64,000 nt of DNA. Origin: Myxococcales bacterium (GTDB taxonomy: Bacteria > Myxococcota_A > Polyangia > Polyangiales > Polyangiaceae). The stretch spans positions 48,960-112,959 of the forward strand of contig SHZB01000001.1 of the NCBI GenBank assembly GCA_009692485.1, read 5' to 3'. Of this stretch, positions 3,170 to 56,430 are shown one piece after another; within the stretch, counting starts at the first letter, position 1; each line of letters starts with the position of its first letter. The translations under genes were made by a program, and so were the position numbers. The notes beneath the pieces were generated by a model. The model worked only from the letters and a program-made list of their open reading frames with translations. It made no database searches and was not told the DNA's origin.

Positions 3170-3183
3170 ACCTACTTCTCTAG

Positions 3184-3295
3184 TGTGCCCATCACCCTGC
3201 GTCTTTCACGCTGTGCCCATCACATCGCGTCGTTCACGCAGTGCCCATCCCGCTGCGTCGTTCACGCAGTGCCCATCACATCGCGTCGTTCACAC
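3184..3295. repeat. 4 x 28-bp tandem direct repeat (consensus GTGCCCATCACATCGCGTCGTTCACGCA) in a divergent intergenic region
   Basis: Units at 3184-3211, 3212-3239, 3240-3267 and 3268-3295, read directly from the sequence. On the minus strand they parse as chained mini-ORFs (see findings). Confidence 0.95.
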
Positions 3296-3376
3296 TGCCT
3301 CTTGACGTTGGGCAATTGCCCGGAGGAGGGGCGCGCTGTAAGAGCCGACGCGAGGCTGAGGCGGACGGACGACAGC

Positions 3377-3781
3377 ATGACGAACGACAGCATGACGAAC
3401 GACACGAGCGACGGCGAAGTGCAAGAGGGCGCGACCGAGGGCGAAGTGCAAGAGGGCGCGACCGAGGGCATCAAGCCGGCGGGTCGCGAGCTGACCGGAA
3501 AACAGCGGCGGCACTTGCGCGCGCTCGGCCATCACCTCGTGCCGCTCGTGCAGGTGGGCAAGGGCGGCGTCACTTCGGGCGTGGTGGCCTCGGTGCGGGC
3601 GGCTCTCCTTACGCATGAGCTGGTGAAGGTGAAGCGTAGCGGCGAGTGTCCGGCGAAGCGGGCGGACATCGCGGTGGAGCTTGCGAGCGCGCTCGGCGCG
3701 GCGATCGCCCAGGAGCTTGGTCACACGATCTTGTTTTACAAGCGCCACCCGAAGAAACCCGTCATCGTCTTGCCGCGCTAG
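3377..3781 (+). CDS. yhbY: ribosome-assembly RNA-binding protein YhbY (CRM/CRS1-YhbY domain)
   Basis: The C-terminal ~97 aa are LTGKQRRHLRALGHHLVPLVQVGKGGVTSGVVASVRAALLTHELVKVK...GHTILFYKRHP, which is the YhbY fold. Start set at the first ATG (3377). The upstream part of the 307-aa track ORF lies in the repeat region. The N-terminus carries 15-bp x2 and 27-bp x2 in-frame repeats. Confidence 0.8.
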   Translation: MTNDSMTNDTSDGEVQEGATEGEVQEGATEGIKPAGRELTGKQRRHLRALGHHLVPLVQVGKGGVTSGVVASVRAALLTHELVKVKRSGECPAKRADIAVELASALGAAIAQELGHTILFYKRHPKKPVIVLPR

Positions 3782-3799
3782 CTCGCTGAGGTTTGCGCG

Positions 3800-6061
3800 A
3801 TGCTTCGAGCGAAACGAATCACCTGCGTCGGCGCGGGACCCGCGGGGCTGTATCTCGCGGCGCTCTTGAAGAAGCGTGCGCCCGAGCTCGACATCGAGGT
3901 GGTGGAGCGCAATCGCGCCGGCGAGACCTTCGGGTTTGGTGTCGTGTTTTCGGACGCGACGATGCACCACCTCGCGGCGGCCGATCCGGAGACGCACCAG
4001 GCGATCACGTCGTCCTTTTGGCACTGGGACGACATCGACACGTACTGGAAGGGAACGCGCCGGCGCTCTACCGGTCACGGATTTGCGGGTGTTTCGCGCA
4101 AGCGGCTGCTCGAGATCCTTGCTGGGCGTTGTCGAGAGCTTGGGGTCTCGCTCCGCTTCGGAGAAGAGGTGACCGACCTCGACGCGCTCGATGCTGAGTG
4201 TGACTTGCTGGTCGGCGCCGATGGTGCGGCGAGCCTCGTGCGCGCGCGCTGGGCCGAGGCCTTCGCGCCGACGGTGGACGAGCGGCCCAATCGCTTCGTG
4301 TGGCTCGGGACGACGTATCCCTTCGATGCGTTCACGTTCTATTTCAAAGAGAACGCGCACGGCTTGTTCCGCGTGCATGCGTACCGATACGAGCCGGGCC
4401 TCTCGACCTTCATCGTCGAGTGTACCGACGAGACCTTCGCCGCAGCGGGGCTCTCGGTCCATGACGAAGAGCGCACGGTCGCGTACATCAGCGAGCTCTT
4501 TCGTGAGGAGCTTGGCGGCCATCCGCTACAACGAAATCGCTCGATTTGGCGGCGATTTCCGACGATTTCGAACGAGCGTTGGCACGACGGCAAGCGCGTC
4601 CTCATCGGCGACGCCGTGCACACCGCGCATTTTTCGGTCGGCAGCGGCACGAAGCTCGCGATGGAGGATGCGATCGCGCTCGCGGACTGTCTGCACGAGG
4701 GCGGCACGCTCAAAGAGCAGCTCGACAGCTACGAGCAGCGGCGACGCGCGGACGTGGCGGCGGTGCAGCGGGCCGCGCAGCAGAGTCTCGAGTGGTTCGA
4801 GCACGTCGAGCGTTATCGCGAGATGGCCCCGGTGGAGTTCGAGTTCAGCATGCTGACGCGCAGCCTGCGGGTCACGCACGAGGGGCTGAAACAGCGCGAT
4901 CCGGCGCTCGTTCGCGAGCTCGACGCGTGGTTTGCGAAGCGCGCGGCCGACGCCACCGGACGCGACGTGCCGGCCGACACGCCGCCGATGTTCACGCCGC
5001 TTCGGCTGCGCGAGCTCGTCTTGGAGAACCGCGTCGTCGTGTCACCGATGTGCCAATACAGCGCGAACGACGGCCGCATCGACGACTGGCATTTGGTTCA
5101 CCTCGGGAGTCGCGCGGTCGGAGGCGCGGGCCTCATCGTCACCGAGATGACCGACGTGAGTCCCGAGGGTCGCATCACGCCGGGGTGCGCGGGCATGTAC
5201 CTCCCCGAGCACGTCACCGCTTGGCGGCGCGTCACCGAGTTCGTCCACGAGCACTCGTACGGCAAGCTCGCCATGCAGCTCGCGCACGCCGGTCGCAAAG
5301 GTGCCACCAAGCGCATGTGGGACGGTATGGACATGCCGCTCGACACCGAAGCGTGGCCGATCGCGTCGAGCTCGCCGATCCCGTATTTGCCCGTGAGCCA
5401 GGTGCCGCGTGAGCTCACGCGCGCGGACATGGTGCTCGTGCGAGACGACTTCGTGCGCGCCGCGGAGATGGCCGACGAGGCCGGGTTCGACATGCTCGAG
5501 CTCCACTTCGCGCACGGCTATCTGCTCGCGTGTTTTCTCTCGCCGCTCACGAATCGGCGCGAGGACGAGTACGGCGGCGCGGTCGAGAATCGCCTGCGAT
5601 TTCCGCTCGAGGTCTTCGATGCGGTGCGCGCTCGCTGGCCGGCGCACAAACCGATCAGCGTGCGCATCAGCGCGACGGACTGGGTCCACGGCGGCAACGA
5701 CGGGGACACGGCGGTGGTGATCGCGCGGACGCTGCATGCCCATGGCTGCGACATCCTCGACGTGTCCGCGGGCCAGACCGTGCGCGAGCAGCGGCCGAAA
5801 TATGGGCGATTGTTCCAAACGCCGTTCAGCGATCGGGTGCGTCACGAGGTCGGGATCCCGACGATGACGGTGGGCGCGATCTCGAGCTACGCGGACGTGA
5901 ACAGCATCTTGGCCGCGGGCCGCGCCGATCTCTGCATGCTCGCGCGCGCGCACCTCTTCGATCCGTACTGGACCCGCCACGCCGCGTACGAGCAGGGTCA
6001 CCGCCTGCCCTGGCCGAAGCAATACGCGAGCCTCGAGAAGTACACGCACCGCTTCAAGTGA
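3800..6061 (+). CDS. fused FAD monooxygenase / Old-Yellow-Enzyme flavin oxidoreductase (salicylyl-CoA 5-hydroxylase-type bifunctional protein)
   Basis: 753 aa. The N-half has [17 protein letters not shown] and [22 protein letters not shown] (aromatic-ring hydroxylase). The C-half has VVSPMCQY and [25 protein letters not shown] (OYE/NADH:flavin oxidoreductase). Confidence 0.75.
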
Positions 6062-6137
6062 CGGCCGCGTGCCGGTCGTCGCGGCGCGAGTTGCGCTACC
6101 CCAGAAACGCGATGGACGTGGCCTTGCGCGGGCAGTT

Positions 6138-6223
6138 GGTCCTCGATTCGCGCCGAGCGAAAAAGTAGAACCACGCGCATGGTCCTCGATTTGCGCGGCG
6201 CGAAAAAGTAGAACCACGCGCAT
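6138..6223. repeat. 2 x 43-bp tandem duplication ending on the start codon of the aldo/keto reductase gene
   Basis: Units 6138-6180 and 6181-6223 (GGTCCTCGAT(T)TCGCGC..GCGAAAAAGTAGAACCACGCGCAT). Each unit ends in ..CGCGCATG. The first ATG (6179) opens a 10-codon uORF, MVLDLRGAKK-TAG (6179-6211). Confidence 0.9.
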
Positions 6224-7067
6224 GACGGCTGCGAGCACACAGGAACACGGGCCGCTCCCGACCATGATGTACGGGACCGCGTGGAAAGAGGAGCGCACGG
6301 CGGGGCTCGTCCTTTTGGCGCTGCGCGAAGGCTTCGACGCCATCGACACCGCCAATCAGCGCAAGCACTACTTCGAGGCTGGAGTCGGGAGTGCGGTCGC
6401 GGAATACCTCGCGGAGACGGGTCGGACGCGCGGCGAGCTATTTCTCCAGAGCAAATTTACGTATGCGCGCGGACAAGGTCAGTGCCTGCCCTACGATCCG
6501 CGGGCGGAGGTCGGGGTGCAGGTTGCGCAGTCGTTCGCGAGCTCGCTCGAGCATCTCGGGACGAGCTACCTCGACTCGTTCGTGCTGCACGGGCCGGCGA
6601 CTGGCTACGGGCTCACCGACGATGACGTGGCCGTGTGGCGTGCGATGGAGGAGCTGCAGCGTGCGGGAAAGTGCCGTTTTCTCGGCGTCAGCAACGTGTC
6701 GCTCGAGCAGCTCAGGGCGCTTCTGCGCGCCTCCGAAGTGAAGCCCAGGTTCGTGCAGAATCGTTGTTTTGCGCGCAGCGGGTGGGACCGCGAGGTGCGC
6801 GCGATATGCCGAGCGCACGAGGTCGTGTACCAGGGTTTCTCGCTGCTCACGGCGAACCAGCGGGAGCTCGACAACGCGGAGATAAGGGCGCTCGCGGCAC
6901 GCCTCGGAGGCACCGTCGCGCAGCTGGTATTTCGCTTCGCCCAAGCGGTTGGGATGCTCCCGCTCACCGGCACTTCGCAGGCCGCGCACATGCGTGAAGA
7001 CCTCGCCGCGAGCGGGCTCGAGATTTCGCCGGCGGACCTGCGCATCATCGAGAGGCTCGCCGGCTGA
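6222..7067 (+). CDS. aldo/keto reductase
   Basis: 281 aa from ATG 6222. AKR-like motifs YGTAWKEE, IDTANQ, LDSFVLHGP and FSLLTANQ. The longer track ORF from 6069 runs through the repeat region. Confidence 0.8.
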   Translation: MTAASTQEHGPLPTMMYGTAWKEERTAGLVLLALREGFDAIDTANQRKHYFEAGVGSAVAEYLAETGRTRGELFLQSKFTYARGQGQCLPYDPRAEVGVQVAQSFASSLEHLGTSYLDSFVLHGPATGYGLTDDDVAVWRAMEELQRAGKCRFLGVSNVSLEQLRALLRASEVKPRFVQNRCFARSGWDREVRAICRAHEVVYQGFSLLTANQRELDNAEIRALAARLGGTVAQLVFRFAQAVGMLPLTGTSQAAHMREDLAASGLEISPADLRIIERLAG

Positions 7068-7120
7068 TCGGCACTTCGCCGCTCCTCCGGGGCCGCTCCT
7101 CCGGGGTTGTCGTCCGGCGC

Positions 7121-7198
7121 GGGCACGCTAACGTGACCTCTTTCCACCGCGTGCTCGACGGGCACGCTAACGTGACCTCTATCCACCGCGTGCTCGAC
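7121..7198. repeat. 2 x 39-bp tandem repeat upstream of the MopE-motif gene
   Basis: GGGCACGCTAACGTGACCTCT(T/A)TCCACCGCGTGCTCGAC at 7121-7159 and 7160-7198. It is preceded by a 14/15-bp x2 repeat (CCGCTCCTCCGGGG) at 7078-7106. Confidence 0.9.
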
Positions 7199-7228: not shown

Positions 7229-7744
7229 ATGGCTTTGCGGAGATTGCAAATGACGCCGAAAAAACAATTGCTGGCCGCTTTTGTGGGGTGTTTCGCGCTC
7301 ACCGGGACCGCGCATGGCTGCTACTTCAATCACCAACTGATCGGCTTCGACGCCGACGGAGACGGGTTCGACGAAGGCGCAGACTGCGATGACGAGGACG
7401 CGCGCGTGTTTCCCGGGGCAGGCGAGCAGTGCAAGGACGGCGTCGACAACGACTGTGACGGGTACCTCGATGCCGAAGATGCGGAGTGCGATCTTTCCGG
7501 CGCGGGCGGTGCTGGTTCCGGCGGCAGCGGCTCGGGCGGCAGCGGTTCGGATGGTGCGGGCTCGGGCGGCAGCGGCTCGGGCGGCAGCGGTTCCGGTGCT
7601 TCGGGCGCGGGCGGTGCGGGTGCCGGCGGCAGCGGCTCGGGCGGCAGCGGTTCCGGTGGTTCGGGCGCGGCCGGCAGCGGTTCGGGCGGCAGCGGCTCGG
7701 GTGGTTCGGGCTCGGGTGGTTCGGGCTCGGGTGGTTCGGGCTAG
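7229..7744 (+). CDS. secreted/lipoprotein with MopE-type putative metal-binding motif and Gly-Ser low-complexity tail
   Basis: N-terminus MALRRLQMTPKKQLLAAFVGCFALTGTAHGC (signal, lipobox-like). FDEGADCDDEDARVFPGAGEQCKDGVDNDCDG is the Cys/Asp motif common in myxobacteria. About 100 aa of GSGGSG repeats follow, ending at an in-frame TAG at 7742. Confidence 0.65.
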   Translation: MALRRLQMTPKKQLLAAFVGCFALTGTAHGCYFNHQLIGFDADGDGFDEGADCDDEDARVFPGAGEQCKDGVDNDCDGYLDAEDAECDLSGAGGAGSGGSGSGGSGSDGAGSGGSGSGGSGSGASGAGGAGAGGSGSGGSGSGGSGAAGSGSGGSGSGGSGSGGSGSGGSG

Positions 7745-8067
7745 GGCGGCAGCGGTTCCGGCGGCAGCGGTTCCGGCGGCAGCGGTGGAGGCTGATCCGG
7801 AAGGTCCCGAGGCGGCGCCTCGTGCGGCTGCGGCGGATTTGCGTGCTCGTGCGGCTGCAGCGAAGGTGTCGATCTTCCGTCGCAAGTCCGATGAGCTGGA
7901 GCGCTCATGGGCGCCGATTCGGGCCACCGAGTCACGCGAATCGCCTTTGAAGTTGCAATCTTTGCAAACTATGGCCCCAGCGGGCCCCGATGTTGCTATG
8001 GTCCCGCGCCCGCTCGGACTTTTATTCGGGCGGCTCAACGCAACGATCGATCAAGTAGGTGACTGGT

Positions 8068-8265
8068 ATGGCTGAAGGCACGATTAAGAAAATGACGGAC
8101 AAGGGATTCGGATTCATCACCACGGACAACGGTGCTGACATCTTTTTTCATATGTCGAATCTCGATGGGGTCCGCTTCGACGAGCTTCGTGAGGGCCAGC
8201 GAGTGACCTACACGGTTGGTCAAGGTCCGAAGGGCGCGCGCGCAGAGAACGTTCGCGTCGCTTGA
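8068..8265 (+). CDS. cold-shock protein (CspA family)
   Basis: MAEGTIKKMTDKGFGFITTDNGADIFFHMSNL... with RNP1/RNP2 motifs. ATG at 8068 is preferred over the upstream GTG at 8059. Confidence 0.95.
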   Translation: MAEGTIKKMTDKGFGFITTDNGADIFFHMSNLDGVRFDELREGQRVTYTVGQGPKGARAENVRVA

Positions 8266-8302
8266 CGACGAGAGCGCTCTAAAAGCGAAGCTCTTTTGCA
8301 GC

Positions 8303-8327
8303 GAAGCCGCCGGATTTCGGCGGCTTC
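8303..8327. terminator. GC-rich hairpin between convergent csp and ctaA genes (candidate bidirectional intrinsic terminator)
   Basis: GAAGCCGCCG-GATTT-CGGCGGCTTC forms a 10-bp perfect stem with a 5-nt loop. It is flanked by CTCTTTTGC upstream and CTGCGTTTGTGG downstream. Confidence 0.55.
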
Positions 8328-8354
8328 CTGCGTTTGTGGGCTCGAAATTCTGGG

Positions 8355-8420
8355 TGCTTCAGCTGGGAGCTCGCGATGCTTCAGCTGGGAGTTCGTGATG
8401 CTTCAGCTCGTGCTGAACTC
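8355..8420. repeat. 3 x 22-bp tandem repeat containing the ctaA stop codon
   Basis: TGCTTCAGCTGGGAG(C/T)TCG(C/T)GA units. The minus-strand TGA recurs at 8403-8405 (the real stop), 8381-8383 and 8359-8361, with a period of 22. Confidence 0.9.
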
Positions 8421-9446
8421 CGTCGCGTCGCGGTCGGGGTCGGGCTCGGCGAGCGCGGTCGCGATGAACAACACGAAGGCGATCCAGACGGCGTCGGCGA
8501 GCAAGAGGTGAACGAGCTGCATCCAGACTGGCGCGAGCATCATCATATTGAGGAAGCCGACGACGACCTGAGACACGACCGCGACCCGTAGCGTGACTCC
8601 GCGCCAGGCGACCCCGGGGGTAGGAACGCGGCTCGCGACGACATGGCGAATGAGCAGCAGCCCGAGCGCCGTGCCGATCGCCGCGAAGGGATGGATGTGG
8701 CGCATCCGGACCAACACGTGAGCCGTCGGCGAGAAATCTTCCGCGAGGGCCGCGCCGATGGTCTTGGGCGGAAATAGCGTATCTCCGAGCGCCGCGACGC
8801 CACCCGTCGCCGCCGTGAACAGAATGCCGAGCGTCCCCACGAGACCGAGGACGCTGACGACGACTCGGCCGGCAAAGCGCATCGGCCCGCGCGTCGTCGC
8901 ACAGTGCGCCGTGAGCGTCATGGCACCGACGAGCAGGAACGTGTTCACGAGGTGCACTCCCATCCAGAGCGCGCGACCCACGGACTTGTTCTCGGCGACG
9001 TACTCGAGCAGCACGATGCCGGCACCGAGGAGCACCTCGATCACCATCAGCGCCGCGCCTGCCGCTGCCCATCGTCCTGCGGGATGACCCGATGCAAATA
9101 CGCGCCGCGACCAAATAAACTGCACCAACACGGCCACCGCGGCGAGCCCGCTCGTCACGCGATGCGTGAACTCGATCATCGTCTTGAGGGCCGGAGCGCG
9201 TGGGATCACCTCGCCGTTGCACAGTGGCCAGTGACTGCCGCAGCCAGCGCCGGACCCGCTGGCGCGGACGAATGCGCCCCACAGAATGACGGCGAGCACG
9301 AACGCGAGCGCGAGCCATGAATAGCGCCGAAAGCGCGCAATTTCCGGCGTAGAAATGACAACGCCGTCATCCACCGCGGTCGGCGTTGAATTGTCAGCGC
9401 CGTCGTCCACCGCGGCCGGCGTTGAATTGTCAGCGTCGTCATTCAT
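8403..9446 (-). CDS. ctaA: heme A synthase (COX15/CtaA family)
   Basis: 347 aa, multi-pass membrane protein. Conserved His-containing helices HRVTSG, HLVNTF, HPFAAIG and HLLLAD. The N-terminus has 36-bp in-frame repeats. An alternative GTG start lies at 9374. Confidence 0.8.
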   Translation of the reverse strand: MNDDADNSTPAAVDDGADNSTPTAVDDGVVISTPEIARFRRYSWLALAFVLAVILWGAFVRASGSGAGCGSHWPLCNGEVIPRAPALKTMIEFTHRVTSGLAAVAVLVQFIWSRRVFASGHPAGRWAAAGAALMVIEVLLGAGIVLLEYVAENKSVGRALWMGVHLVNTFLLVGAMTLTAHCATTRGPMRFAGRVVVSVLGLVGTLGILFTAATGGVAALGDTLFPPKTIGAALAEDFSPTAHVLVRMRHIHPFAAIGTALGLLLIRHVVASRVPTPGVAWRGVTLRVAVVSQVVVGFLNMMMLAPVWMQLVHLLLADAVWIAFVLFIATALAEPDPDRDATEFSTS

Positions 9447-15889: not shown

Positions 15890-16045
15890 CCGCGCCGGTG
15901 CTTCGCGGGGACCTGCTTCGCACTCGACTGTGCAGCACCTGCTTCGCCGAGACCTGCTTCGCCGAGACCTGCTTCGCACTCGACTGCAGCACCTGCATCG
16001 CCGAGACCGCGCGCAGTGGGCCGATTGCGCCTAAGCTTCGAACGC

Positions 16046-18857: not shown

Positions 18858-18960
18858 CCGTAGCTTGCCAAGCAAAAAACTTTTCGTGGCGCGTACGTAC
18901 TCACAAAACGAAAAACGCGGTCGGGTGCCGAAGCAACCCGTACCGCGCATCGAGTCATTC

Positions 18961-19092
18961 GCAGAAGCGGAGGGACCTCCAAGAAAACCGAGAGTCCTCC
19001 GCAGAAGCGGAGGGACCTCCAAGAAAACCGAGAGTCCTCCGCAGAAGCGGAGGGACCTCCAAGAAAATCGAGAGTCCTCCGCAGAAGCGGAC
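18961..19092. repeat. 3.3 x 40-bp tandem repeat; each unit junction forms a 7-bp hairpin
   Basis: GCAGAAGCGGAGGGACCTCCAAGAAAACCGAGAGTCCTCC at 18961, 19001 and 19041, plus a partial unit at 19081. The inverted repeat is CCTCCGC-AGAA-GCGGAGG. The array starts 4 nt after the stop of the Lys-rich mini-gene. Confidence 0.9.
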
Positions 19093-19096
19093 GAGC

Positions 19097-28389: not shown

Positions 28390-28416
28390 GACCGTAGGCC
28401 CCCAGTCACGTCAACC

Positions 28417-28461
28417 CGCGTTGATTTCGGCCGCGTTGATTTCGGCCGCGTTGATTTCGGA
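28417..28461. repeat. 3 x 15-bp tandem repeat (GCGTTGATTTCGGCC) in a divergent intergenic region
   Basis: Units 28417-28431, 28432-28446 and 28447-28461. Located between the 871-aa gene start and uppS. Confidence 0.9.
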
Positions 28462-34305: not shown

Positions 34306-34311
34306 AACCTA

Positions 34312-34377
34312 GCTCCCGTGCCCCGGCGGGTACAAGAAACCGTGGCTCCCGTGCCCCGGCGGGTACAAGAAACCGTG
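34312..34377. repeat. 2 x 33-bp perfect tandem repeat in a divergent promoter region
   Basis: GCTCCCGTGCCCCGGCGGGTACAAGAAACCGTG at 34312-34344 and 34345-34377. Confidence 0.95.
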
Positions 34378-34396
34378 GTAGCTTCCGCCGCGGGCG

Positions 34397-41881: not shown

Positions 41882-41986
41882 GAATCCTCCTGGACTAACG
41901 GCCCCGTGGCTTCCGTCATGAGGCGCAGCGGCCTCGTGATTGCCATGGAGCGAGGGATCGAAAAAGTCCGTCAACCCTGTTGCTCT

Positions 41987-42025
41987 GCGCGTTCGCTCAG
42001 CGCGTTCGCTCAGCGCGTTCGCTCA
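41987..42025. repeat. 3 x 13-bp tandem repeat starting on the pth stop codon
   Basis: GCGCGTTCGCTCA x3. The minus-strand TGA is at 42023-42025 (the real stop), 42010-42012 and 41997-41999. Confidence 0.9.
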
Positions 42026-42702: not shown

Positions 42703-43449
42703 TCACTTCTTCTTGTCGCCCTTCGCCGGTGCCGCTGCCGCGCCCTTCGCGGGAGCTGCTGCCGCGCCCTTCGCAGGTGCCGCTGCCGCGCCCTTCGCAG
42801 GTGCTGCTGCCGCGCCCTTTCCGGCCACAGCGGGTGGTGCCCCGGCGGCGGGAGCTACGGCCGCGGCCGTCTCCGCGACGGCTGCTTCTTCCGCGGCGCG
42901 CGGTGCCTTCACGGACACGATGCGTTGCTCTGCCGGAAGGAGCACCACGACCCCAGCGGGGAGCATGAGATCCTTGACGCGGAACGAGTCCCCCATTTCA
43001 AGCGGAGTGACGTCGAGCTCGAAACCAGCCGGGATGAGCGGCGGAAGACAGCGCACATGAAGCGTGCGTGAGGCCACGAGCACCACGCCGCCGTCGGCTT
43101 CGCCCTTGGCCTTGCCGATCGCACGGAACGGGACCTCGACCTCGATCGGCGCGTTCACATCGACCGTGATGAAGTCGGCGTGCAGCAGCTTTCGCGTGAT
43201 GGGGTGCACGCTGAAGTCGCGCACCATGACGGGGAGCGAGCCGCTGTCAAGCTGGAGATGCACGAGCGCGTTACGGCCTTTCGGCGAGCCGAGCGCCTTA
43301 CGCAGCTCGTTGTGGCCGACCATCAGCGCGAGATTCTTCTCTCCCTTGCCGTAGGCGATCGCGGGGACCTGACCGGTGATGCGAAGTCGGCGCGAGCCGG
43401 CCGAACCGAGCACCGTGCGGGGAGTGGCTTTGAGCGTGATCTGTTCCAT
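42703..43449 (-). CDS. rplY: 50S ribosomal protein L25 / general stress protein Ctc
   Basis: GQVPAIAYGKGEKNLALMV...HPITRKLLHADF. The C-terminal tail has 21-bp in-frame repeats encoding (KGAAAAPA) x4. Confidence 0.9.
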   Translation of the reverse strand: MEQITLKATPRTVLGSAGSRRLRITGQVPAIAYGKGEKNLALMVGHNELRKALGSPKGRNALVHLQLDSGSLPVMVRDFSVHPITRKLLHADFITVDVNAPIEVEVPFRAIGKAKGEADGGVVLVASRTLHVRCLPPLIPAGFELDVTPLEMGDSFRVKDLMLPAGVVVLLPAEQRIVSVKAPRAAEEAAVAETAAAVAPAAGAPPAVAGKGAAAAPAKGAAAAPAKGAAAAPAKGAAAAPAKGDKKK

Positions 43450-45565: not shown

Positions 45566-45621
45566 TTCAGAAAACGAAGTTCAGAAAACGAAGTTCAGAA
45601 AACGAAGTTCAGAAAACGAAG
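45566..45621. repeat. 4 x 14-bp tandem repeat (TTCAGAAAACGAAG) between convergent genes, containing the stop and last codons of the minus-strand gene
   Basis: Units at 45566, 45580, 45594 and 45608. The minus-strand TGA is at 45609-11 (the real stop), 45595-97, 45581-83 and 45567-69. The array begins 2 nt after the PP2C TGA. Confidence 0.95.
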
Positions 45622-47064: not shown

Positions 47065-47155
47065 CCGCGCTGAGTGTAGCCGCGCAAGTGAATGCAGGTC
47101 AAAACTGGCGCGCGCCGTACCTTCCGCGCCCCTTCCGCGCGCCCCTTCCGCGCGC

Positions 47156-47329: not shown

Positions 47330-47336
47330 CCCTGAA

Positions 47337-48915: not shown

Positions 48916-48974
48916 TTGCGCGACGACGATCGAACTGAGATCGAGAGGACACCATGAAGAAGCTGTTTCGACAA

Positions 48975-49094
48975 ATCGGCAATCGTGAACTTGCCAATCT
49001 CTCCATGAGCAATCGCGAAGTTGGTGATCGGCAAATGGGCAATCGTGAACTTGCCAATCAGCCAATGAGCCGTCGCGAAGTTGCCGTTCGCGAA
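48975..49094. repeat. 4 x 30-bp imperfect tandem repeat; three units begin with ATG, immediately upstream of the lipoprotein start
   Basis: Units 48975, 49005, 49035 and 49065, of the form AT(C/G)(G/A)GC(A/C)(A/G)TCG(T/C)GAA(C/G)TTG(C/G).... In frame with the downstream CDS they read IGNRELANLS / MSNREVGDRQ / MGNRELANQP / MSRREVAVRE. Confidence 0.8.
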
Positions 49095-50412: not shown

Positions 50413-50436
50413 AGCTCATGGCAATACCGCCGCCGC

Positions 50437-51465
50437 TCAGGGCTTCGGGTGCGCGAGGAAGAAGTCGAACAAGGCAGCCTTGAACTCACCCTTGAAGCCC
50501 GGCAAATGCTGGCTTCCGACGAGCTTCCACTGCTCGACGAGGCTCGCGCCCTCGCAGCCGATGTCCCAGCGCGTCACCTTCGTCTCGCTGCCCACGATGA
50601 CCGTGAGATCTTTGTCCGCGGGCGTCTCGTCGGCCGTGAGCGAGCAGCCGTTCAGCATGGCCCAGGTCTCCGAAGTCTCGAGCGCGCCCGGGTACTCCCC
50701 GCCGAAGAGCTTGCCGCCTCCATAGAGGATCGTCGGATCGAGCGAGCCATGGACGACGAGGGCAGTGACCGGCTCGCTGGGCTTGCATTGCGTCTCGTCT
50801 TTGTACGTCGCGCCCGCGAGCGAGCCGAAGGCGGCGATGGCGTCGGCATGTTCACACGCCATGCGATGGGACATGAAGCCGCCGTTCGAGTGGCCGAAGA
50901 AATAGACGCGCTTGGCATCGACCGTGTACGCCTGCTTGATCTCGTCGATGACCTGACGCAGGTAGCCGGAGTCGTCCACGTCACTGCCGTTGAAGTTGCA
51001 GCATGCGTCGGTGGCATTCCAGAATCGCTGTCCGCGCTTGTCGAAGGTGCCATCGGGATACGCGTACAAAAAGCCGTGTTTGTCGGCCATTTCGGTGAAG
51101 CCGAGGTAAATCTCCTGCACCTTGCCGCTGGCCGTGTAGCCGTGCAGCAAGATCAACAGCGGCGCGGGCTCGGCTGGATCGTAGCCGGGCGGAACGTGCA
51201 CCGTGACCGGCCGGTCGCCGCCGATCACGCCGTCGAAGCCGCTGCCCGAGCTCGGATTCGAGGCACCCGCGCCGCCAGTGCCCGTGCCGTTCGCATTCGT
51301 GCCGTTCGTGCCCGAGCTTGCCCCTTGCCCAGCGCTGCCGCCGCCCGCGCCGCCCGCACTCGTGTGCGTCTCGAACCCGGTCGTCGTGTCCGTCCCGCAG
51401 CCGAGAATGCCGGCCGCCAGAAGTGCGGCCGCGAGTGTCTGAAATGCCAGTCTCGGTAATGCCAT
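50437..51465 (-). CDS. secreted esterase, PHB-depolymerase/LpqC-like alpha/beta hydrolase (lipoprotein)
   Basis: MALPRLAFQTLAAALLAAGILGCG lipobox. PLLILLHGYTASG and VYFFGHSNGGFMSHRMA (GxSxG). The track ORF extends in frame to ATG 51609 through 15-bp repeats. Confidence 0.7.
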   Translation of the reverse strand: MALPRLAFQTLAAALLAAGILGCGTDTTTGFETHTSAGGAGGGSAGQGASSGTNGTNANGTGTGGAGASNPSSGSGFDGVIGGDRPVTVHVPPGYDPAEPAPLLILLHGYTASGKVQEIYLGFTEMADKHGFLYAYPDGTFDKRGQRFWNATDACCNFNGSDVDDSGYLRQVIDEIKQAYTVDAKRVYFFGHSNGGFMSHRMACEHADAIAAFGSLAGATYKDETQCKPSEPVTALVVHGSLDPTILYGGGKLFGGEYPGALETSETWAMLNGCSLTADETPADKDLTVIVGSETKVTRWDIGCEGASLVEQWKLVGSQHLPGFKGEFKAALFDFFLAHPKP

Positions 51466-51589
51466 TGTTGGAATTGCCCTAATAGGTAATGCCCTAATCG
51501 GGAATGCCATAGTCGGGAATGCCATAGTCGGGAATGCCATAGTCGGGAATGCCATTGGCGGTAATCCGAGCCTCGGTATTGCCACCTTC
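51455..51589. repeat. about 9 x 15-bp tandem repeat (GG(G/T)AATGCCATAGTC) covering the start-codon neighbourhood of the esterase gene
   Basis: Units every 15 bp from 51455 to 51589. Three are perfect copies (51500-51544). On the minus strand in frame they read PTMAF repeats with ATGs at protein positions 19, 24, 29, 34 and 49 of the long ORF. Confidence 0.9.
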
Positions 51590-51617: not shown

Positions 51618-52901
51618 CTACATATCAGACTTCGCGGACGGCGCGGCTCGGCGTTCGGCGGCGCGGGCGTGGGCTTCGAGCCCTTCGAGGCGGGCCAGAA
51701 TAGCGGCGTCGCGTGCGAGTTCGCGATCATTGCCAGTACCGTCGAGACGCAAGAAGGTGCGGACACGAAGAAAGGTCATCACCGAGAGTCCGCCGGTGTA
51801 GCGCGCCGTTCCGCCCGTGGGCAGCACGTGATTGGGACCGGCACCGTAGTCTCCGAAGACCTCCGCGGAGCCCGGGCCGATGAAGATGGCGCCGTAATGA
51901 GAGAGCCGCTTCGAGCGCTCGTGTGCGTCGGCGGTCATGACCTCGAGGTGCTCGGGCGCGAGCTTGTCCGACGCGGCGATGCCTTCATCGGGCGTGCACA
52001 CCAACGCGAAGCCGTTTTCGAGCGCGCGGGCCGCGAGTTCCCGAGTCGAGAGCCCTTCGAGCTGAGTCGCGAGCGCACGATTGACCGCTTCGGCATGCGC
52101 CCGCGTGGTCGTGATCACGATCGGCAAGGCGTCGCTCGCATGCTCGGCTTGCGCCAGCAGATCGGCGGCGATCAGCTCGGGATCAGCGGCCTCGTCCGCG
52201 AGCACGACCAGCTCGCTTGGACCGGCGAGCATATCGATCGCGACGCGGCCATGGACGAGCTTCTTGGCGGCGGTGACCCAGCGATTTCCGGGGCCGACGA
52301 TGATGTCGACGGCCGGGATCGAGGCCGTGCCGTAAGCCAGCGCGGAGATGGCGTGGGCACCACCTGCGGCGAGCAAACTATCGGCGCCCGCGAGCGCGGC
52401 GGCGGCCATCGTGACTTGTGTAGGCCGGGGGCTCGCGACCCACACCGACCGAACGCCGGCGACGCGCGCGGTGATCGCGGTCATGAGCACGCTCGAGGGC
52501 AGGGGATAGCCGCCGCCGGGCGCATAACATCCCGCGCGCTCGACCGGGGCTATCGTGTGGCCCGCGCTGCCACCCGCGACGGCGAGCTCGAGTGGGGCGA
52601 GCGACGCGCGTTGGGCCTCGGCAAATCGCGTGATTCGCGCTGCTGTACGCTCGAGCACGCCGCGCGCATCGGAGCCGAGTGACGCGAGCGCATAGATGAG
52701 CTGTGCTCGCGGAATGACGAGCGCATCGGTGTCGCCGAGGCCGTCGTGCTGGCATGCGTAGCGACGAAGCGCGGCATCACCCCCGGCGTGAACGTCGTTC
52801 ACGATTTGGCTAGCAGCCGCGAGCGTGTCGGTGTCGATGGCCGCGCGCCGCTCGACGAATCGCTCGAGCTCCGCAAGCGCGATGAGCTTCAAGCCACTCA
52901 C
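51618..52901 (-). CDS. hisD: histidinol dehydrogenase
   Basis: GCYAPGGGYPLPSSVLM, IIVGPGNRWVTAAKK, LLAQAEHASDA and GDYGAGPNHVLPTGGTARY. The GTG start at 52901 overlaps an upstream TGA. The rest of the 725-aa track ORF is an upstream shadow. Confidence 0.92.
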   Translation of the reverse strand: MSGLKLIALAELERFVERRAAIDTDTLAAASQIVNDVHAGGDAALRRYACQHDGLGDTDALVIPRAQLIYALASLGSDARGVLERTAARITRFAEAQRASLAPLELAVAGGSAGHTIAPVERAGCYAPGGGYPLPSSVLMTAITARVAGVRSVWVASPRPTQVTMAAAALAGADSLLAAGGAHAISALAYGTASIPAVDIIVGPGNRWVTAAKKLVHGRVAIDMLAGPSELVVLADEAADPELIAADLLAQAEHASDALPIVITTTRAHAEAVNRALATQLEGLSTRELAARALENGFALVCTPDEGIAASDKLAPEHLEVMTADAHERSKRLSHYGAIFIGPGSAEVFGDYGAGPNHVLPTGGTARYTGGLSVMTFLRVRTFLRLDGTGNDRELARDAAILARLEGLEAHARAAERRAAPSAKSDM

Positions 52902-52972
52902 TTCGCGTCTCCCTCGCGCCGCTCGACGAATCGCTCGAGCTTCGCGATCGCGATGAGCTTCAAGCTGCTCAC
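52827..52972 (-). repeat. 71-bp tandem duplication of the hisIE-stop/hisD-start junction, creating a 24-codon chimeric mini-ORF
   Basis: TCACTTCGCGTC occurs at 52898 and 52969. CGCGCCGCTCGACGAATCGCTCGAGCT.CGC...CGCGATGAGCTTCAAGC is present twice. The mini-ORF 52898-52972 reads VSSLKLIAIAKLERFVERREGDAK. Confidence 0.9.
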
Positions 52973-54222
52973 TTCGCGTCCCCGGGCCGGCGCGTGATCT
53001 TGCGTGCGCGTGCCTCGAGGATCTGCTCGACCTCGGTGAGCGAGACGCCGGCCTTCGCCATCCGGACGAGCGTGAAATAGAGGACATCGGCCGCCTCGTG
53101 CGCGACCTCGTCGTGACTCGCCGCAAGACCAAGCTCGCCCGCCTCTTCGATGAGCTTCTTGCGGAGCAGCTCGGGCTCGTGGAGGAGCCGCGCGGTGTAC
53201 GAGCCCGCTGGTGCGTCGGTGGCGCGGCCGCGCAGCACCTCAGCGAGCGCGGGCATGCCGCCGAGCGCACCCCAACAGCTCGTTGTGCCGGTGTGGCAAA
53301 AGCCCGGGCCTGCCTGCACGACGGTGAAGCGCAGCGCGTCTCTGTCGCAGTCGAGGTCCACGCGCACGAGCCGTTGTGTGGCGCCGCTCGATGCGCCCTT
53401 GTGCCAGAGGCCGCGTTGGCGCGAATGGTAGATTCCGGTGCGGGTCGCGATCGCAGCACGCAGACTCTCGCGACTCGACCAGCATTGTCCGAGCGCGCGC
53501 CCGTGCTCATCGACGACGACCGTCGCAAAGAGGCCGTCCGCGCGATCGCTGACGAGCGGTGCCGCGAACGCATCGCCGAGCTCCATGTGGCCTTGGTAGA
53601 GCGCCATGCCGACTTGCGCGTCGATGCCGAGTTTGTCGAGCGCAGCGACTTCCGCGACCGTGGTGACGCCTCCGGCGATCGTGAGCGAAGCGTCTCCGGC
53701 GGCGTCGCGCAGCTCTCTTGCGCGCTCGAGATCGGTGCCTCCGAGCCGGCCCTCGCGCTCGACGAAGGTGACGAGAAACCCGCCGACGACATCACGCAAT
53801 TCGCGCATCCGCTCGGGCACGCTCGCGCCGGTCTTGGTGCGCCAGCCCTCGACGACGACCTCTCCGTCGAGCGCGTCGAGCGCCGCGATCAGCCGTGATT
53901 TCGGCAATTGACGCAGCAGCTCCGGAGTTGCGGCGGTGCCGAGGATGAGCTTCTCCGCGCCGGCATCGAGCGCTTCGACAGCACGCGCGACGCTGCGGAT
54001 CCCGCCTCCGACGCGGCAGCGTGCGACCCGGCACACTCGCTCGACCAGCGCGCGGTTGTCACCCGTGCCGAGCGCCGCATCGAGATCGATCAACGCCAGC
54101 TCGCCGATGACCCCGAAGCGCTCCGCGATCGGCAGCGGGCAGCCGGCCTCGAGCGCCAAGTCGCGCCCCCCGACGAGCTGCACGGTCTGGCCGCCCATCA
54201 AATCGATTGAAGGAATAATCAC
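52969..54222 (-). CDS. hisA-hisIE: trifunctional fusion HisA (ProFAR isomerase) - HisI (PR-AMP cyclohydrolase) - HisE (PR-ATP diphosphatase)
   Basis: N-terminal IIPSIDLMGGQTVQLVGG...GGGIRS...TIAGGV (HisA barrel). Middle YHSRQRGLWHKGASSGATQRLVRVDLDCDRDALRFTV..CHTG (HisI). C-terminal SYTARLL..KKLIEEAGE...EAADVLYF (HisE). The GTG start overlaps an upstream TGA. Confidence 0.85.
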   Translation of the reverse strand: MIIPSIDLMGGQTVQLVGGRDLALEAGCPLPIAERFGVIGELALIDLDAALGTGDNRALVERVCRVARCRVGGGIRSVARAVEALDAGAEKLILGTAATPELLRQLPKSRLIAALDALDGEVVVEGWRTKTGASVPERMRELRDVVGGFLVTFVEREGRLGGTDLERARELRDAAGDASLTIAGGVTTVAEVAALDKLGIDAQVGMALYQGHMELGDAFAAPLVSDRADGLFATVVVDEHGRALGQCWSSRESLRAAIATRTGIYHSRQRGLWHKGASSGATQRLVRVDLDCDRDALRFTVVQAGPGFCHTGTTSCWGALGGMPALAEVLRGRATDAPAGSYTARLLHEPELLRKKLIEEAGELGLAASHDEVAHEAADVLYFTLVRMAKAGVSLTEVEQILEARARKITRRPGDAK

Positions 54223-54288
54223 ATTCGCACCGGGCTCTGTTCCGGCGTCGAGTACGGCGCCGCAAGGATCACATTCGCACCGGGATTT
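54219..54288 (-). repeat. 50-bp-spaced duplication of the hisF-stop/hisA-start junction (CCCGGTGCGAATGTGAT x2), creating a 17-codon mini-ORF
   Basis: TCACATTCGCACCGGG occurs at 54219 and 54269. The mini-ORF 54219-54272 reads VILAAPYSTPEQSPVRM. Confidence 0.9.
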
Positions 54289-55027
54289 CCGCGGCGGCGA
54301 GCGCGCGCTTCAGATCGCCGACGGTGACTTCGCCGTCGTGAAGGATCGATGCCGCGAGCACTGCGCTTGCCCCCGCGCGCACGGCCTCGAGCATGTGCTG
54401 TGCGTGTGCGGCGCCGCCCGACGCGACCACCGGGATGCGTACCGCGCTCGTGACAGCCCCGATCAACTCGATGTCGTAACCGGCGCGCGTGCCGTCGCGA
54501 TCCCAGCTCGTCAGCACGATCTCTCCGGCGCCGCGTGACGCCGCCTCTCGTGCCCACGCGACCGCGCAGCGCGAGGTTCGCTCTTTGCCAGAGCGCACGA
54601 CCAGCTCCCAGCCCGCGCCATCTTGGCGGCGCGCGGCATCGAGCGCGAGCACCGTGCATTGACTGCCGAAGGTCCTGGCGAGTCGGTCGAGCAGCGACGG
54701 CTCGAGCGCCGCTGCCGTGTTGCTCGCGACCTTGTCGGCCCCCGCCTCGAGCAGAGCGCGCGCATCTTCGATGGTGCGCACGCCGCCGCCCACCGTGAGC
54801 GGAATTCCGAGGACCGCGCGCACCCGACGCACCGTCTCGGTGGCATTGCCGCGCCCTTCCGGCGTCGCCGAGACATCGAGCATCACGAGTTCGTCGGCAC
54901 CTTGCGCCTCGTACGCGAGGGCACGCTCGGTCGGATCACCCGCATCGCGCATCCCGCTGAAGCGCACGCCCTTCACGACGCGACCGGCGTCGATGTCGAG
55001 GCACGGGACGACGCGAATCGTCAGCAC
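54269..55027 (-). CDS. hisF: imidazole glycerol phosphate synthase cyclase subunit
   Basis: VLTIRVVPCLDIDAGRVVKGVRF, GADELVMLD, IPLTVGGGVRT and IPVVASGGA. The GTG at 55027 overlaps the hisH stop (GTGCTGA). Confidence 0.93.
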   Translation of the reverse strand: MLTIRVVPCLDIDAGRVVKGVRFSGMRDAGDPTERALAYEAQGADELVMLDVSATPEGRGNATETVRRVRAVLGIPLTVGGGVRTIEDARALLEAGADKVASNTAAALEPSLLDRLARTFGSQCTVLALDAARRQDGAGWELVVRSGKERTSRCAVAWAREAASRGAGEIVLTSWDRDGTRAGYDIELIGAVTSAVRIPVVASGGAAHAQHMLEAVRAGASAVLAASILHDGEVTVGDLKRALAAAEIPVRM

Positions 55028-55632
55028 GCGCGCACCTTCGCGAGCCAGCGCCCGAGCAGCGCGTGTCCCCATGCGCCGCTCAGCTCGGGATGAAATTGAC
55101 ACGCGAGCAACGCCCCCTTTTCGAGCGCGGCGACGAAGGGACTTCCGTGCACGGCGAGCGCCCCCGAGTAGCCAGCGGGGAGCGCATCGAGCCGATACGA
55201 GTTCGCGAAATAGGCATGCCCGCTCGCGAGCAGCGTCGAGTCCAGGGCGGGCTCGACCAGGTTCCAGCCGAGCTGCGGCACGACCAGCCCCGCGCGATCT
55301 TCAAATCGTCGCACCGCCGCGTCGATCACGCCGAGGCCGGAAATTCCGGGACTTTCTTCGCTTTCGCGACACAAGAGCTGAAGGCCGAGACACACGCACA
55401 ACAGGGCTCGGCCCTCACGCGCGCGCTTCGTGAGCGCCACGGCGAGCCCCGTCGCCTCGAGCCGCGCCATGCCCGCACCGAACGCGCCGACCCCCGGCAA
55501 CACCACGCGCTCGGCGGCGGCGACGACGCTCGCATCGGTCGACAGCCGGGGCGCGGCACCGACGCGAACGAGGGCGGCGCACACCGAGGCGAGGTTCGCC
55601 GTGCCGGTATCGACGACGATGACCTCGCTCAC
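55021..55632 (-). CDS. hisH: imidazole glycerol phosphate synthase glutamine amidotransferase subunit
   Basis: VIVVDTGTANLASV, LPGVGAFG, LCVCLGLQLL and FHPELS. The GTG at 55632 overlaps the stop of the last mini-ORF. Confidence 0.9.
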   Translation of the reverse strand: MSEVIVVDTGTANLASVCAALVRVGAAPRLSTDASVVAAAERVVLPGVGAFGAGMARLEATGLAVALTKRAREGRALLCVCLGLQLLCRESEESPGISGLGVIDAAVRRFEDRAGLVVPQLGWNLVEPALDSTLLASGHAYFANSYRLDALPAGYSGALAVHGSPFVAALEKGALLACQFHPELSGAWGHALLGRWLAKVRAC

Positions 55633-55775
55633 GAGAGCGCCTCGCCGCTCGGAGCGAACGCGCATGTCTTCATCGCAAGCACCGCGTCATCGAAGGCACC
55701 GCGTCATTGCAAGCACCGCGTCATCGCAAGCACCGCGTCATCGAAAGCACCGCGTCATCGAGAGCACCGCGTCAC
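55629..55775 (-). repeat. six 17-bp tandem units plus one 45-nt ORF forming seven chained mini-ORFs between hisB and hisH
   Basis: Plus-strand CATCG(C/A)A(A/G)GCACCGCGT units. The minus-strand stops at 55772, 55755, 55738, 55721, 55704, 55687, 55670 and 55629 each overlap the next GTG/ATG by 4 nt. Confidence 0.95.
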
Positions 55776-56371
55776 AAGACGCCCTTCGTGCTGGCGATGT
55801 CCGTGCCGGTGATCGCCACGGCTTGCCGCAGCGCGACTGCCAACGCTTTGAACGCGGCCTCGGCCCGGTGATGATCGTGCTCGCCCTTGAGGACCTCGAC
55901 GTGCAGCGCCGAGCGCGACGCCATCGCGAGCGACTGCATGACGTGGGTCACACACTCGCACGAGAGGTTGCCGAGCTTCTCGCGACGCAGCCCGAGATTG
56001 ATCGCCGGCCACGGGCGCCCCGACAGATCGATCACCGCGCGGGCCAGCGCCTCGTCGAGCGGCGCATACCCATGACCGAAGCGCGCGATCCCGACCCGCT
56101 CGCCCAGCGCTTGATCGAGCGCCTTTCCGAGCGCGATCCCGCAGTCTTCGCTCGTGTGGTGATCGTCCACCTCGAGATCCCCCTGGCAGCTCAGCTCGAG
56201 ATCGAAGCGCGCGTGTTTGACGAGGGTCGTGAGCATGTGATCGAGAAACCCAATCCCGGTCGCGATGCGGCTCACGCCGGTGCCGTCGAGGTTCAGCGAC
56301 AAGGCCACGCTCGTCTCGTTGGTCTTGCGCGCGATCGTGGCCTGTCGTGGCGGGGTGGCGATGGCGTTCAT
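55772..56371 (-). CDS. hisB: imidazoleglycerol-phosphate dehydratase (monofunctional)
   Basis: ARKTNETSVALSLNLDG, GIGFLDHML, DDHHTSEDCGIALG and GEHDHHRAEAAFKA. ATG 56371 overlaps the mini-ORF stop as ATGA. The upstream TTG at 56392 is less likely. Confidence 0.93.
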   Translation of the reverse strand: MNAIATPPRQATIARKTNETSVALSLNLDGTGVSRIATGIGFLDHMLTTLVKHARFDLELSCQGDLEVDDHHTSEDCGIALGKALDQALGERVGIARFGHGYAPLDEALARAVIDLSGRPWPAINLGLRREKLGNLSCECVTHVMQSLAMASRSALHVEVLKGEHDHHRAEAAFKALAVALRQAVAITGTDIASTKGVL

Positions 56372-56430
56372 GATTCGTCGATGGTGCTCCAAAAACTGAA
56401 GTCGAGCGCTCGGTGTGCGATGGCGTTCAT
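56368..56430 (-). repeat. 59-bp-spaced duplication of the hisC-stop/hisB-start junction (ATGAACGCCATCGC x2), giving a 20-codon mini-ORF
   Basis: The mini-ORF MNAIAHRALDFSFWSTIDES starts on the ATGA overlapping the hisC-HAD stop (56427-29). It ends on the ATGA overlapping the hisB start (56368-71). Confidence 0.9.

Follow-up and report, generated by a model that had tools for sequence, protein, structure and literature searches.

Short tandem duplications in a Polyangia chromosome segment: placement probably governed for the most part by purifying selection, with periods of 2 mod 3 at overlapping his-operon junctions

Repeat load of the window

The subject of this analysis is a dense set of short tandem repeat arrays in a 64-kb stretch of DNA (contig SHZB01000001.1 of assembly GCA_009692485.1, positions 48,960 to 112,959), hereafter called the window, which is core chromosome of an uncultured member of the Polyangia (Myxococcota) represented by a metagenome-assembled genome (MAG). 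The nearest HisF loci among species-representative genomes belong to Polyangia/Polyangiaceae MAGs and show 75-76% amino-acid identity. The G+C content of the window amounts to 66%, and a gene model based on codon usage predicts 58-61 genes, which render 89% of the 64 kb coding. An earlier annotation of the same DNA made from its letters alone, referred to here as the original prediction, had given gene names with which Pfam is in agreement. These include a DAO-type FAD oxidoreductase, YhbY, an aldo/keto reductase (AKR), a MopE-type Cys lipoprotein, CtaA, Pth, PP2C, a metallo-beta-lactamase/phosphodiesterase and an esterase. The his operon is located on the minus strand, its gene order being, according to Pfam, hisG, hisC-HAD, hisB, hisH, hisF, hisA-IE and hisD.

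Tandem Repeats Finder (TRF) reports 95 rows for the window, which reduce to 36 non-overlapping arrays with a period of at least 10 nt and a score of at least 50. If arrays are considered as “clean” only when they reach a TRF score of at least 80 and at least 85% match, 20 of them are present, corresponding to 0.31/kb. In the his-operon neighbourhoods of about 150 other bacteria, other Myxococcota included, merely 22 clean arrays are found within 1.85 Mb (0.012/kb), and third-order Markov simulations of the window yield none. For clean arrays whose period is not a multiple of 3 the numbers are 9 in the window versus 4 in the 1.85 Mb of control sequence. All repeats named in the original prediction are present at or near their positions, as verified by TRF, by repeat search and by reading of the sequence, and its claim of an unusual density is strongly supported, the excess over other genomes being about 26-fold.

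Several observations bear on whether the arrays are real. Over 1071 nt, the Logan assembly of SRR8561391 matches the window at 100% identity; this match takes in the 59-nt duplication at the hisC-HAD/hisB junction as well as the first 2.6 copies of the 17-mer at the hisB/hisH junction, where it ends. Furthermore, the copies within arrays are distinguished by substitutions, every array in the window leaves the reading frames unbroken, and the arrays of the nearest sampled relative, designated R, are found again in more than five independent assemblies. Together, these findings make it unlikely that the repeats are artefacts of assembly or polishing, one of the outcomes which the original prediction had named as its refutation.

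Placement, period and the his junctions

The original prediction had stated that the repeats are anchored on the boundaries of coding sequences (CDS) and that only a few of them are not. The 32 curated arrays to which all placement and class counts refer do not bear this out: a start or stop codon is touched by 12, another 12 occupy purely intergenic DNA and the interior of a CDS holds 8. Compared to uniform random placement, the overlap with start or stop codons is modestly enriched (8 observed versus 3.9 expected, p = 0.04), and this enrichment vanishes when positions inside CDS are excluded. The repeats listed as start-anchored are indeed present, yet the 28-mer attributed to the FAD oxidoreductase does not contain a start codon but lies 15 nt off that of the gene, which starts at 3169 on the minus strand.

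Tandem repeats in coding DNA generally have periods which are multiples of 3. The claim that repeats within reading frames follow this rule proved correct for all eight CDS-internal arrays ((1/3)^8 = 1.5e-4). At least five in-frame arrays reside in protein tails, namely in the N-terminal tails of YhbY and CtaA, the signal-peptide N-region of the esterase, the leader of the pacifastin-type lipoprotein and the C-terminal tail of ribosomal protein L25, some of these being counted as start-spanning or leader arrays instead of CDS-internal ones in the class counts. Arrays whose period is not a multiple of 3 are found either outside CDS or at a boundary which they duplicate in such a way that one gene copy stays intact. 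The companion claim that the period of a stop-containing repeat is never divisible by 3 fails at the Gly/Ser tail of the MopE-type lipoprotein, whose period-15 array (7495-7785) includes the TAG stop codon at 7742-7744. In the neighbouring units TCG occupies the place of this TAG, and beyond it the frame stays open for 16 more Gly/Ser codons to a TGA at 7793-7795; the TAG thus looks like a recent nonsense change within an in-frame array. In the case of the three simple stop-spanning arrays (periods 13, 14 and 22), that no period is a multiple of 3 could well be due to chance ((2/3)^3 = 0.30).

None of the nine start-spanning arrays contains a decoy start which runs into the gene in another frame; four decoys are in frame with it and five are closed at or before the true start. 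As random start-spanning duplications overrun in about 45% of cases, the probability of such an outcome is (0.55)^9 = 0.005. The AKR leader may serve as an example: the decoy ATG of the first 43-nt copy opens a 10-codon ORF (open reading frame) which closes with TAG upstream of the true start.

We simulated a filter in which the observed periods are placed uniformly and only duplications strictly inside CDS are discarded. Its predictions for the 24 arrays that are not CDS-internal are 15.5 intergenic (12 observed), 4.0 start-spanning (4 observed), 3.8 stop-spanning (5 observed) and 0.7 junction arrays spanning both a start and a stop codon (3 observed). As the loci of R show, the affected junctions were ancestrally overlaps or spacers of 10-23 nt, so that a duplication tolerated there has to span the boundary. 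The apparent boundary rule can therefore for the most part be put down to purifying selection on abundant random local duplications. Of the two alternatives offered in the original prediction, filtering by selection reproduces the class counts, while a duplication process targeted to boundaries is not required to account for them.

The most conspicuous arrays occur within the his operon, where duplicated NTGA stop/start overlaps are present at four of the six junctions (Table 1). All of the lengths involved, i.e. the periods of 59, 17, 50 and 71 nt and the final 41-nt segment at hisB/hisH, equal 2 mod 3. Owing to this arithmetic, the start codon in an upstream copy opens a mini-ORF whose closing TGA is that of the following copy, and this TGA in turn overlaps with the start coming next. 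A codon-by-codon check confirmed that all four chains close as NTGA-linked mini-ORFs. At hisB/hisH, six mini-ORFs of 6 codons are followed by one of 14 codons, leading from the hisB stop to the GTG of hisH at 55632, and any copy number of the 17-mer would keep this relay closed. A period of 2 mod 3 is found in four of four junction arrays versus three of the 28 others (Fisher p = 0.001). The junction periods are indeed indivisible by 3, as claimed in the original prediction for stop-containing repeats, but the sharper regularity, a remainder of specifically 2, had been missed. In relative R, a 65-nt unit at the hisF/hisA junction follows this arithmetic as well, in the two-copy and in the three-copy allele alike. 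If the mini-ORFs are translated, a ribosome leaving the upstream gene could pass through them by termination-reinitiation to the real downstream start, and selection would retain only those junction duplications which preserve the NTGA hand-over. We consider this 2 mod 3 relay the most interesting element of the window; it is statistically suggestive and represents a locally generated variant of the architecture known from mycobacterial interspersed repetitive units (MIRUs).

The remaining co-directional gene pairs of the window were screened for hidden junction duplications as well. Besides the four his junctions this yielded just a weak match of 14 nt, linking the stop of the gene at 3800-6061 to the AKR start (p = 0.015), which was judged unconvincing. 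In 168 sequences scanned for arrays bridging two long same-strand ORFs, four candidates beyond the window and R came up, which on inspection turned out to be spurious ORFs or purine-rich low-complexity sequence. A generic count of relay mini-ORFs between long ORFs was dropped: it reaches 0.14/kb in the controls, the pattern being common by chance among spurious ORFs of high-GC DNA and the count hence uninformative unless based on real gene calls.

Table 1. Tandem arrays and duplicated junctions of the window (window coordinates)
Location	Position	Strand	Array
hisA-IE/hisD	52841..52982	-	71-nt x2, 90-92% identical, GTGA duplicated; one 24-codon mini-ORF 52972-52898
hisF/hisA-IE	54218..54284	-	50-nt-spaced GTGA duplication; 17-nt perfect core, diverged flanks; one 17-codon mini-ORF
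hisB/hisH	55629..55775	-	17-nt x6.2 + final 41-nt segment; seven consecutive mini-ORFs
hisC-HAD/hisB	56358..56430	-	59-nt-spaced ATGA duplication; 14-nt perfect core, diverged flanks; one 20-codon mini-ORF
DAO/yhbY divergent spacer	3184..3297	.	28-nt x4.1, 56-nt higher order; 15 nt from DAO start
yhbY start	3364..3404	+	15-nt x2.7; two in-frame yhbY ATGs, 3377 and 3392
YhbY N-terminal tail	3405..3469	+	27-nt x2.4, in frame
AKR leader	6137..6224	+	43-nt x2.05; right end = AKR ATG (6222-6224)
Post-AKR	7078..7106	.	14-nt x2.1, 11 nt past AKR stop
MopE-type lipoprotein leader	7120..7198	+	39-nt x2.0; gene start 7250
MopE-type lipoprotein Gly/Ser tail	7495..7785	+	in frame, periods 15, 45, 60, 105
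ctaA stop	8355..8408	-	22-nt x2.5; stop codon 8403-8405 included
ctaA start	9344..9446	-	36-nt x2.8, in frame; units open ATG, GTG, GTG
Upstream of msrA	15899..16008	.	56-nt x2, 15-nt sub-repeat; intergenic, after stop at 15889
Hairpin 40-mer	18952..19091	.	40-nt x3.5; unit stem-loop CCTCCGC-AGAA-GCGGAGG
Inside 866-aa ORF 25774-28371	27227..27324	-	30-nt x3.3, 98-100% identical, in frame
Divergent spacer upstream of uppS (start 28494)	28416..28460	.	15-nt x3.0, perfect
Intergenic	34312..34378	.	33-nt x2.0, perfect; 19 nt upstream of start 34397
pth stop	41982..42025	-	13-nt x3.4; begins exactly on stop codon (42025-42023)
Ribosomal protein L25 C-terminal tail	42717..42819	-	24-nt x4.3, in frame, 12 nt from stop
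PP2C/phosphodiesterase convergent gap	45566..45621	.	14-nt x4.0, perfect; phosphodiesterase stop 45609-45611 included
Upstream of tRNA-Gln/tRNA-Glu	47125..47155	.	13-nt x2.4
Pacifastin-type Cys-rich lipoprotein leader	48968..49085	+	30-nt x3.9 (60 x1.9)
Esterase N-region	51438..51587	-	15-nt x7-9, in frame
Inside CDS 60983-62302	62096..62147	-	24-nt x2.2, in frame
Intergenic	62839..62885	.	16-nt x2.9, 41 nt upstream of start 62926

Turnover, origin and competing explanations

Relative R shares 78% HisB identity, about 77% nucleotide identity and the gene order with the window, and it is represented by several independent assemblies; a metagenome scan with HisB revealed no nearer relative. Comparison with R and with a further relative (L168) shows that most of the arrays are absent from the orthologous sites; this applies to those designated 28x4, 15x2.7, 43x2, 13x3.4, 30x4, 15x9, 17x6 and 71x2. 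In R, hisB and hisH are joined by a plain TTGA overlap and hisA-IE and hisD by a plain GTGA overlap. The spacer in front of the AKR gene, which lacks the 43-nt duplication, comprises 23 nt in R versus 160 nt in the window, the DAO/yhbY spacer, which lacks the 28-mer, 70 nt versus 208-222 nt, and the gap preceding the pacifastin-type lipoprotein gene 10 nt versus about 250 nt. The R esterase contains no 15-mer array, and L168 has no 13-mer at the pth stop. At these seven sites (hisB/hisH, hisA/hisD, AKR leader, pth stop, esterase, pacifastin leader and DAO/yhbY) the relatives are thus single-copy or compact, as is characteristic of local tandem duplication in the window.

Conversely, R possesses six clean arrays of its own in 22.5 kb (0.27/kb), at other sites. 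Its arrays include a 15x6.6 array just past the DAO stop, a 26x4.8 array in the spacer after yhbY, a 16-nt x2.9 array 8 nt after the AKR stop (differing from the 14-mer of the window), the 65-nt duplication of the hisF/hisA ATGA junction and an 18-nt array in the hisC-hisB spacer; the N-terminal tail of its YhbY harbours a different, 21-nt array. Copy number in R varies between samples, being 2 or 3 for the 65-mer and 2.7 or 8.7 for the 18-mer. Within the species of the window, the ENA contig ERZ1305449 (5364 nt) agrees with window positions 1015-6380 in all gene lengths and spacings with a single exception: the starts of the DAO gene and of yhbY lie closer together by exactly 15 nt, which equals one 15-mer unit, as judged from the spacings and not from the sequence of the contig. 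The arrays of R together with the absence or variation at orthologous sites indicate that a high repeat load characterises this small clade, and from these comparisons the arrays appear to be young and to turn over quickly.

The hisC stop of R overlaps an ATG (TGATG), opening a mini-ORF which holds the 18-nt array in frame (L082 2940-3195, L084 2931-3081, L085 2854-3109; 30 codons in the short L084 allele). The long 18-mer allele shows a nested higher-order duplication.

As to the nature of the units, the 31 unit consensus sequences have no sequence in common, an all-against-all blastn comparison giving just two chance GC-rich matches of 12-13 nt, and a search of the arrays against Rfam matched no family; the arrays hence do not represent a dispersed element. 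Units rather contain what lies next to them: the 71-mer carries the N-terminus of HisD, the 59-mer the MNAIA of HisB and the 65-mer of R the MIIPAI of HisA. Six clean two-copy arrays have lengths which deviate from two periods by -1 to +2 nt, which leaves no flanking microhomology. Copy identity ranges from 100% (33x2, 14x4, 15x3, 30x3) over 92-98% down to cases in which a mere 14-17-nt core is identical, so that the duplication process looks continuous over time. On the basis of the six clean events, blunt, motif-free duplications would favour fill-in and end-joining of staggered breaks over slippage between short direct repeats, and slippage or unequal exchange would fit the later changes in copy number.

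Taken as a whole, the data are best explained, and in our judgement probably so, by local tandem duplication at a high rate combined with a purifying-selection filter and a further filter at NTGA junctions. The lineage would generate short tandem duplications (about 12-105 bp) of any local sequence at an unusually high rate, with no common motif and essentially blunt, which later gain or lose copies; such an elevated mutational input is what the observed repeat load would point to. Inside genes, only in-frame units would survive, mostly in tolerant N- or C-terminal tails, while in spacers any period would do so. At compact junctions, a tolerated duplication would have to include the start or stop codon and to leave one intact gene copy, and at co-directional NTGA overlaps the further filter would admit only duplications with a period of 2 mod 3. 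Such selective survival would make the arrays look as if they were anchored on CDS boundaries and would tie their periods to the context in which they lie.

Some points weigh against this explanation. The junction class comprises 3-4 arrays where 0.7 are expected, and the concentration on four of the six his junctions is part of the same mild excess, to which a hotspot or positive selection might have contributed. The 2 mod 3 regularity is derived from 4-5 events in one operon ((1/3)^4 = 0.012), and the 50-nt and the 65-nt duplication at hisF/hisA may go back to a single ancestral event. The start of hisH is ambiguous (GTG 55632 or ATG 55665), and with the ATG the last link would become a 5-nt gap. 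Moreover, the hisC-hisB spacer of R forms no closed relay, which means that the relay is not obligatory. Finally, the control loci stem from metagenome assemblies, in which repeats may be too few, and the genome-wide pattern is extrapolated from 64 kb of this genome plus 22.5 kb of a relative.

The first alternative is duplication targeted to gene boundaries, with breaks or polymerase slippage favouring gene starts and stops, for example via boundaries of transcription or translation. The excess of junction arrays just mentioned would follow from it directly. It would likewise account for array ends located 0-3 nt from the stops of pth, hisB, PP2C and ctaA and from the ATG codons of AKR and ctaA, and for the fact that the window and R are independently affected at hisF/hisA, hisC/hisB, just past the AKR stop and in the YhbY tail. 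Recurrence at the same junctions, however, would equally result from a filter which leaves few permissive sites. The 20 arrays placed in spacers or inside CDS, the modest and position-dependent codon enrichment and the lack of a common motif all speak against targeting, and to our knowledge no boundary-targeted duplication mechanism is known in bacteria. We therefore regard it as improbable, albeit as the strongest of the rivals.

Slightly less credible still is the assumption of positively selected variable repeats whose copy number tunes his coupling, promoter/operator spacing or the length of signal-peptide N-regions. That four of six his junctions are affected, that copy number is polymorphic in R, that the 28x4 array occupies a divergent promoter region and that the relay stays closed at any copy number of the 17-mer would all be in line with such a function. 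On the other hand, most sites are not conserved between the window and R, the neighbouring genes are unrelated housekeeping genes which share no functional theme, and none of the arrays matches a known RNA family. Nor, with respect to reading frames, do the arrays have the properties of phase-variable contingency loci, as those inside CDS are all in frame.

Insertion of a dispersed mobile family (MIRU-like or resembling repetitive extragenic palindromes (REP) or miniature inverted-repeat transposable elements (MITEs)) at gene junctions with target-site duplication is very unlikely. It gains some appeal from the his-junction architecture, which resembles that of MIRUs in its short ORFs coupled at -4 spacing (PMC12548453, PMC3184786), from the 50-nt and 59-nt cases, which look like direct repeats of 14-17 nt around dissimilar sequence, and from the insertion at pth, which has GGTTGA on either side. 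Yet the unit sequences share nothing with each other, the 71-, 65- and 59-nt units hold the own codons of neighbouring genes, and alignment with R extends the similarity past the perfect cores. Terminal inverted repeats were not noticed in the his-junction units that were read, no systematic search having been made for them. As regards REP, bacterial interspersed mosaic elements and MITEs, the units lack the shared sequence and the Rfam match such families would show; a clear hairpin was noted in the 40-mer only, the other units not having been inspected individually. Candidate explanations of the arrays from mobile elements, Rfam families or tRNAs likewise gave nothing relevant. Least probable of all, an artefact of assembly or polishing could be suspected because the source is a MAG and because the Logan contig stops inside the 17-mer array, an indication that these repeats are hard to assemble, but the independent 1071-nt identity, the substitutions between copies, the respected reading frames, the recurrence of such arrays in assemblies of R and a second independent same-species assembly in which the genes are spaced alike, with an AKR leader of likewise 160 nt, leave it next to no credit.

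Relation to known systems and further observations

The closest known counterpart of the his junctions are the MIRUs (Supply et al. 1997), which PMC12548453 and PMC3184786 describe as tandem units of 40-100 bp in operon junctions with an internal ORF coupled at -4 spacing. Common to both are co-directional operon junctions, small ORFs whose ends overlap stop and start at -4 and a polymorphic copy number, which on the side of the present arrays is seen in R. The units of the senX3-regX3 MIRU comprise 77 and 53 bp (PMC4213456); both numbers are 2 mod 3 and hence share the arithmetic of the 17-, 50-, 59-, 65- and 71-nt units described here. In contrast, MIRUs are dispersed over about 40-50 loci in Mycobacterium, have a common consensus and are thought to be mobile, whereas the present arrays duplicate their own local junction including flanking codons, lack a consensus across loci and occur in a myxobacterial host. 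The co-directional junction with a small ORF overlapping at -4 is found at the four his junctions and has no meaning for the other arrays, about 28 in number. A consensus shared by dispersed loci is missing, and instead of a foreign unit with a short target duplication in Mycobacterium there are units made of own codons in a member of the Polyangia. Being local duplications, the window arrays may work in a MIRU-like manner without being MIRUs.

Termination-reinitiation at -4 overlaps (ATGA or TGATG) is experimentally established (PMC6728339, PMC10666635, PMC12548453), and every link of the his chains is an NTGA overlap, the very configuration shown to couple translation. Known cases of coupling, however, involve either a direct connection between two real genes or a single short ORF placed upstream of a gene, while here up to seven consecutive mini-ORFs are lined up. 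In the literature searched we came across no chain of as many as seven mini-ORFs that had been generated by tandem duplication, nor any description of an overlapping-junction duplication or of a period rule; the searches, which covered junction duplications, tandem repeats of Myxococcota and variable number tandem repeats over stop or start codons, yielded no precedent besides MIRUs.

For the remaining arrays the appropriate comparison is the bias of disruptive prokaryotic repeats towards gene termini and non-coding DNA (van Passel and Ochman, cited in PMC2621210). There, gene interiors are depleted, 5' and 3' gene ends and spacers are enriched, repeats within genes are in frame and selection against disruption is the accepted cause, all of which parallels the window. 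The repeats treated there are mostly mono- or oligonucleotide runs at ordinary densities, whereas the units of the window measure 12-105 nt, are about 26-fold denser than in other genomes and in many cases span a start or stop codon.

Should the pattern extend to the whole genome, this lineage would amount to a natural mutation-accumulation screen of where a chromosome tolerates short insertions, and would at the same time put translational coupling to a natural test. The survival of duplicated ATGA junctions at 2 mod 3 alone is a simple, countable prediction for any repeat-rich genome and, if true, provides a natural experiment on the strength of selection for termination-reinitiation coupling. 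The arrays also suggest how MIRU-type coupled units could arise from ordinary local duplication. The most far-reaching version, namely that hyperactive blunt, microhomology-free duplication pries apart overlapping genes, that the period is set by the start-to-stop offset modulo 3 and that MIRU-like units are thereby born locally, we put forward tentatively and with more doubt than confidence. The repeat load further hints that replication or repair proceeds differently in one myxobacterial clade. In practical terms, array loci are places where starts will be misplaced by gene callers and where metagenome assemblers break contigs.

Several single arrays deserve a comment. The 28-nt unit (TGTGCCCATCAC..CGCGTCGTTCACGC), present in four copies, occupies the divergent promoter region between the DAO gene and yhbY, and its copies may be iterated operator or promoter elements. 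The 40-mer, each copy of which folds into a perfect 7-bp stem with a 4-nt loop, is situated in a gap of about 900 nt (18672-19586) for which no confident gene was called; it may represent a reiterated hairpin, either terminator-like or protein-binding. At the start of ctaA, the ATG at 9446 is the first of the 36-mer unit starts. The PP2C stop is located at 45562-45564, and a single copy of the 14-mer would place the PP2C and phosphodiesterase genes 2 nt apart. Most 30-mer units of the pacifastin-type lipoprotein leader contain an in-frame ATG and lie in the frame of the gene upstream of its signal peptide, while the 15-mer of the esterase sits between a conserved ATG (51609) and the signal-peptide core. 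Unusually extended stretches of about 450-700 nt without a confident gene are found at 7745-8402, 33940-34396 and 47065-47757; the arrays at 34237-34268 and 34312-34378 fall inside the second of them. A tRNA-Gln(CTG)/tRNA-Glu(CTC) pair is encoded at 47259-47411, with a sigma-70-like promoter match ahead of it at 47156-47183. A promoter and terminator scan of the region from 40 to 59.5 kb gave the same counts as shuffled sequence.

We would finally like to mention some features of gene organisation. HisA, HisI (PRA-CH) and HisE (PRA-PH) are fused in one 417-aa ORF (52969-54222), and the HisC aminotransferase is fused to a HAD hydrolase in one ORF (56427-58133). In another Polyangia MAG, a single 841-aa ORF (L001 10750-13275) covers the counterparts of hisA-IE and hisD of the window. 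Relative R carries an extra alpha/beta-hydrolase gene between the esterase and a VTT-domain gene (L082 8993-9889), which the window lacks (about 50412-50437); this insertion or deletion lies in a region which is otherwise syntenic between the two.

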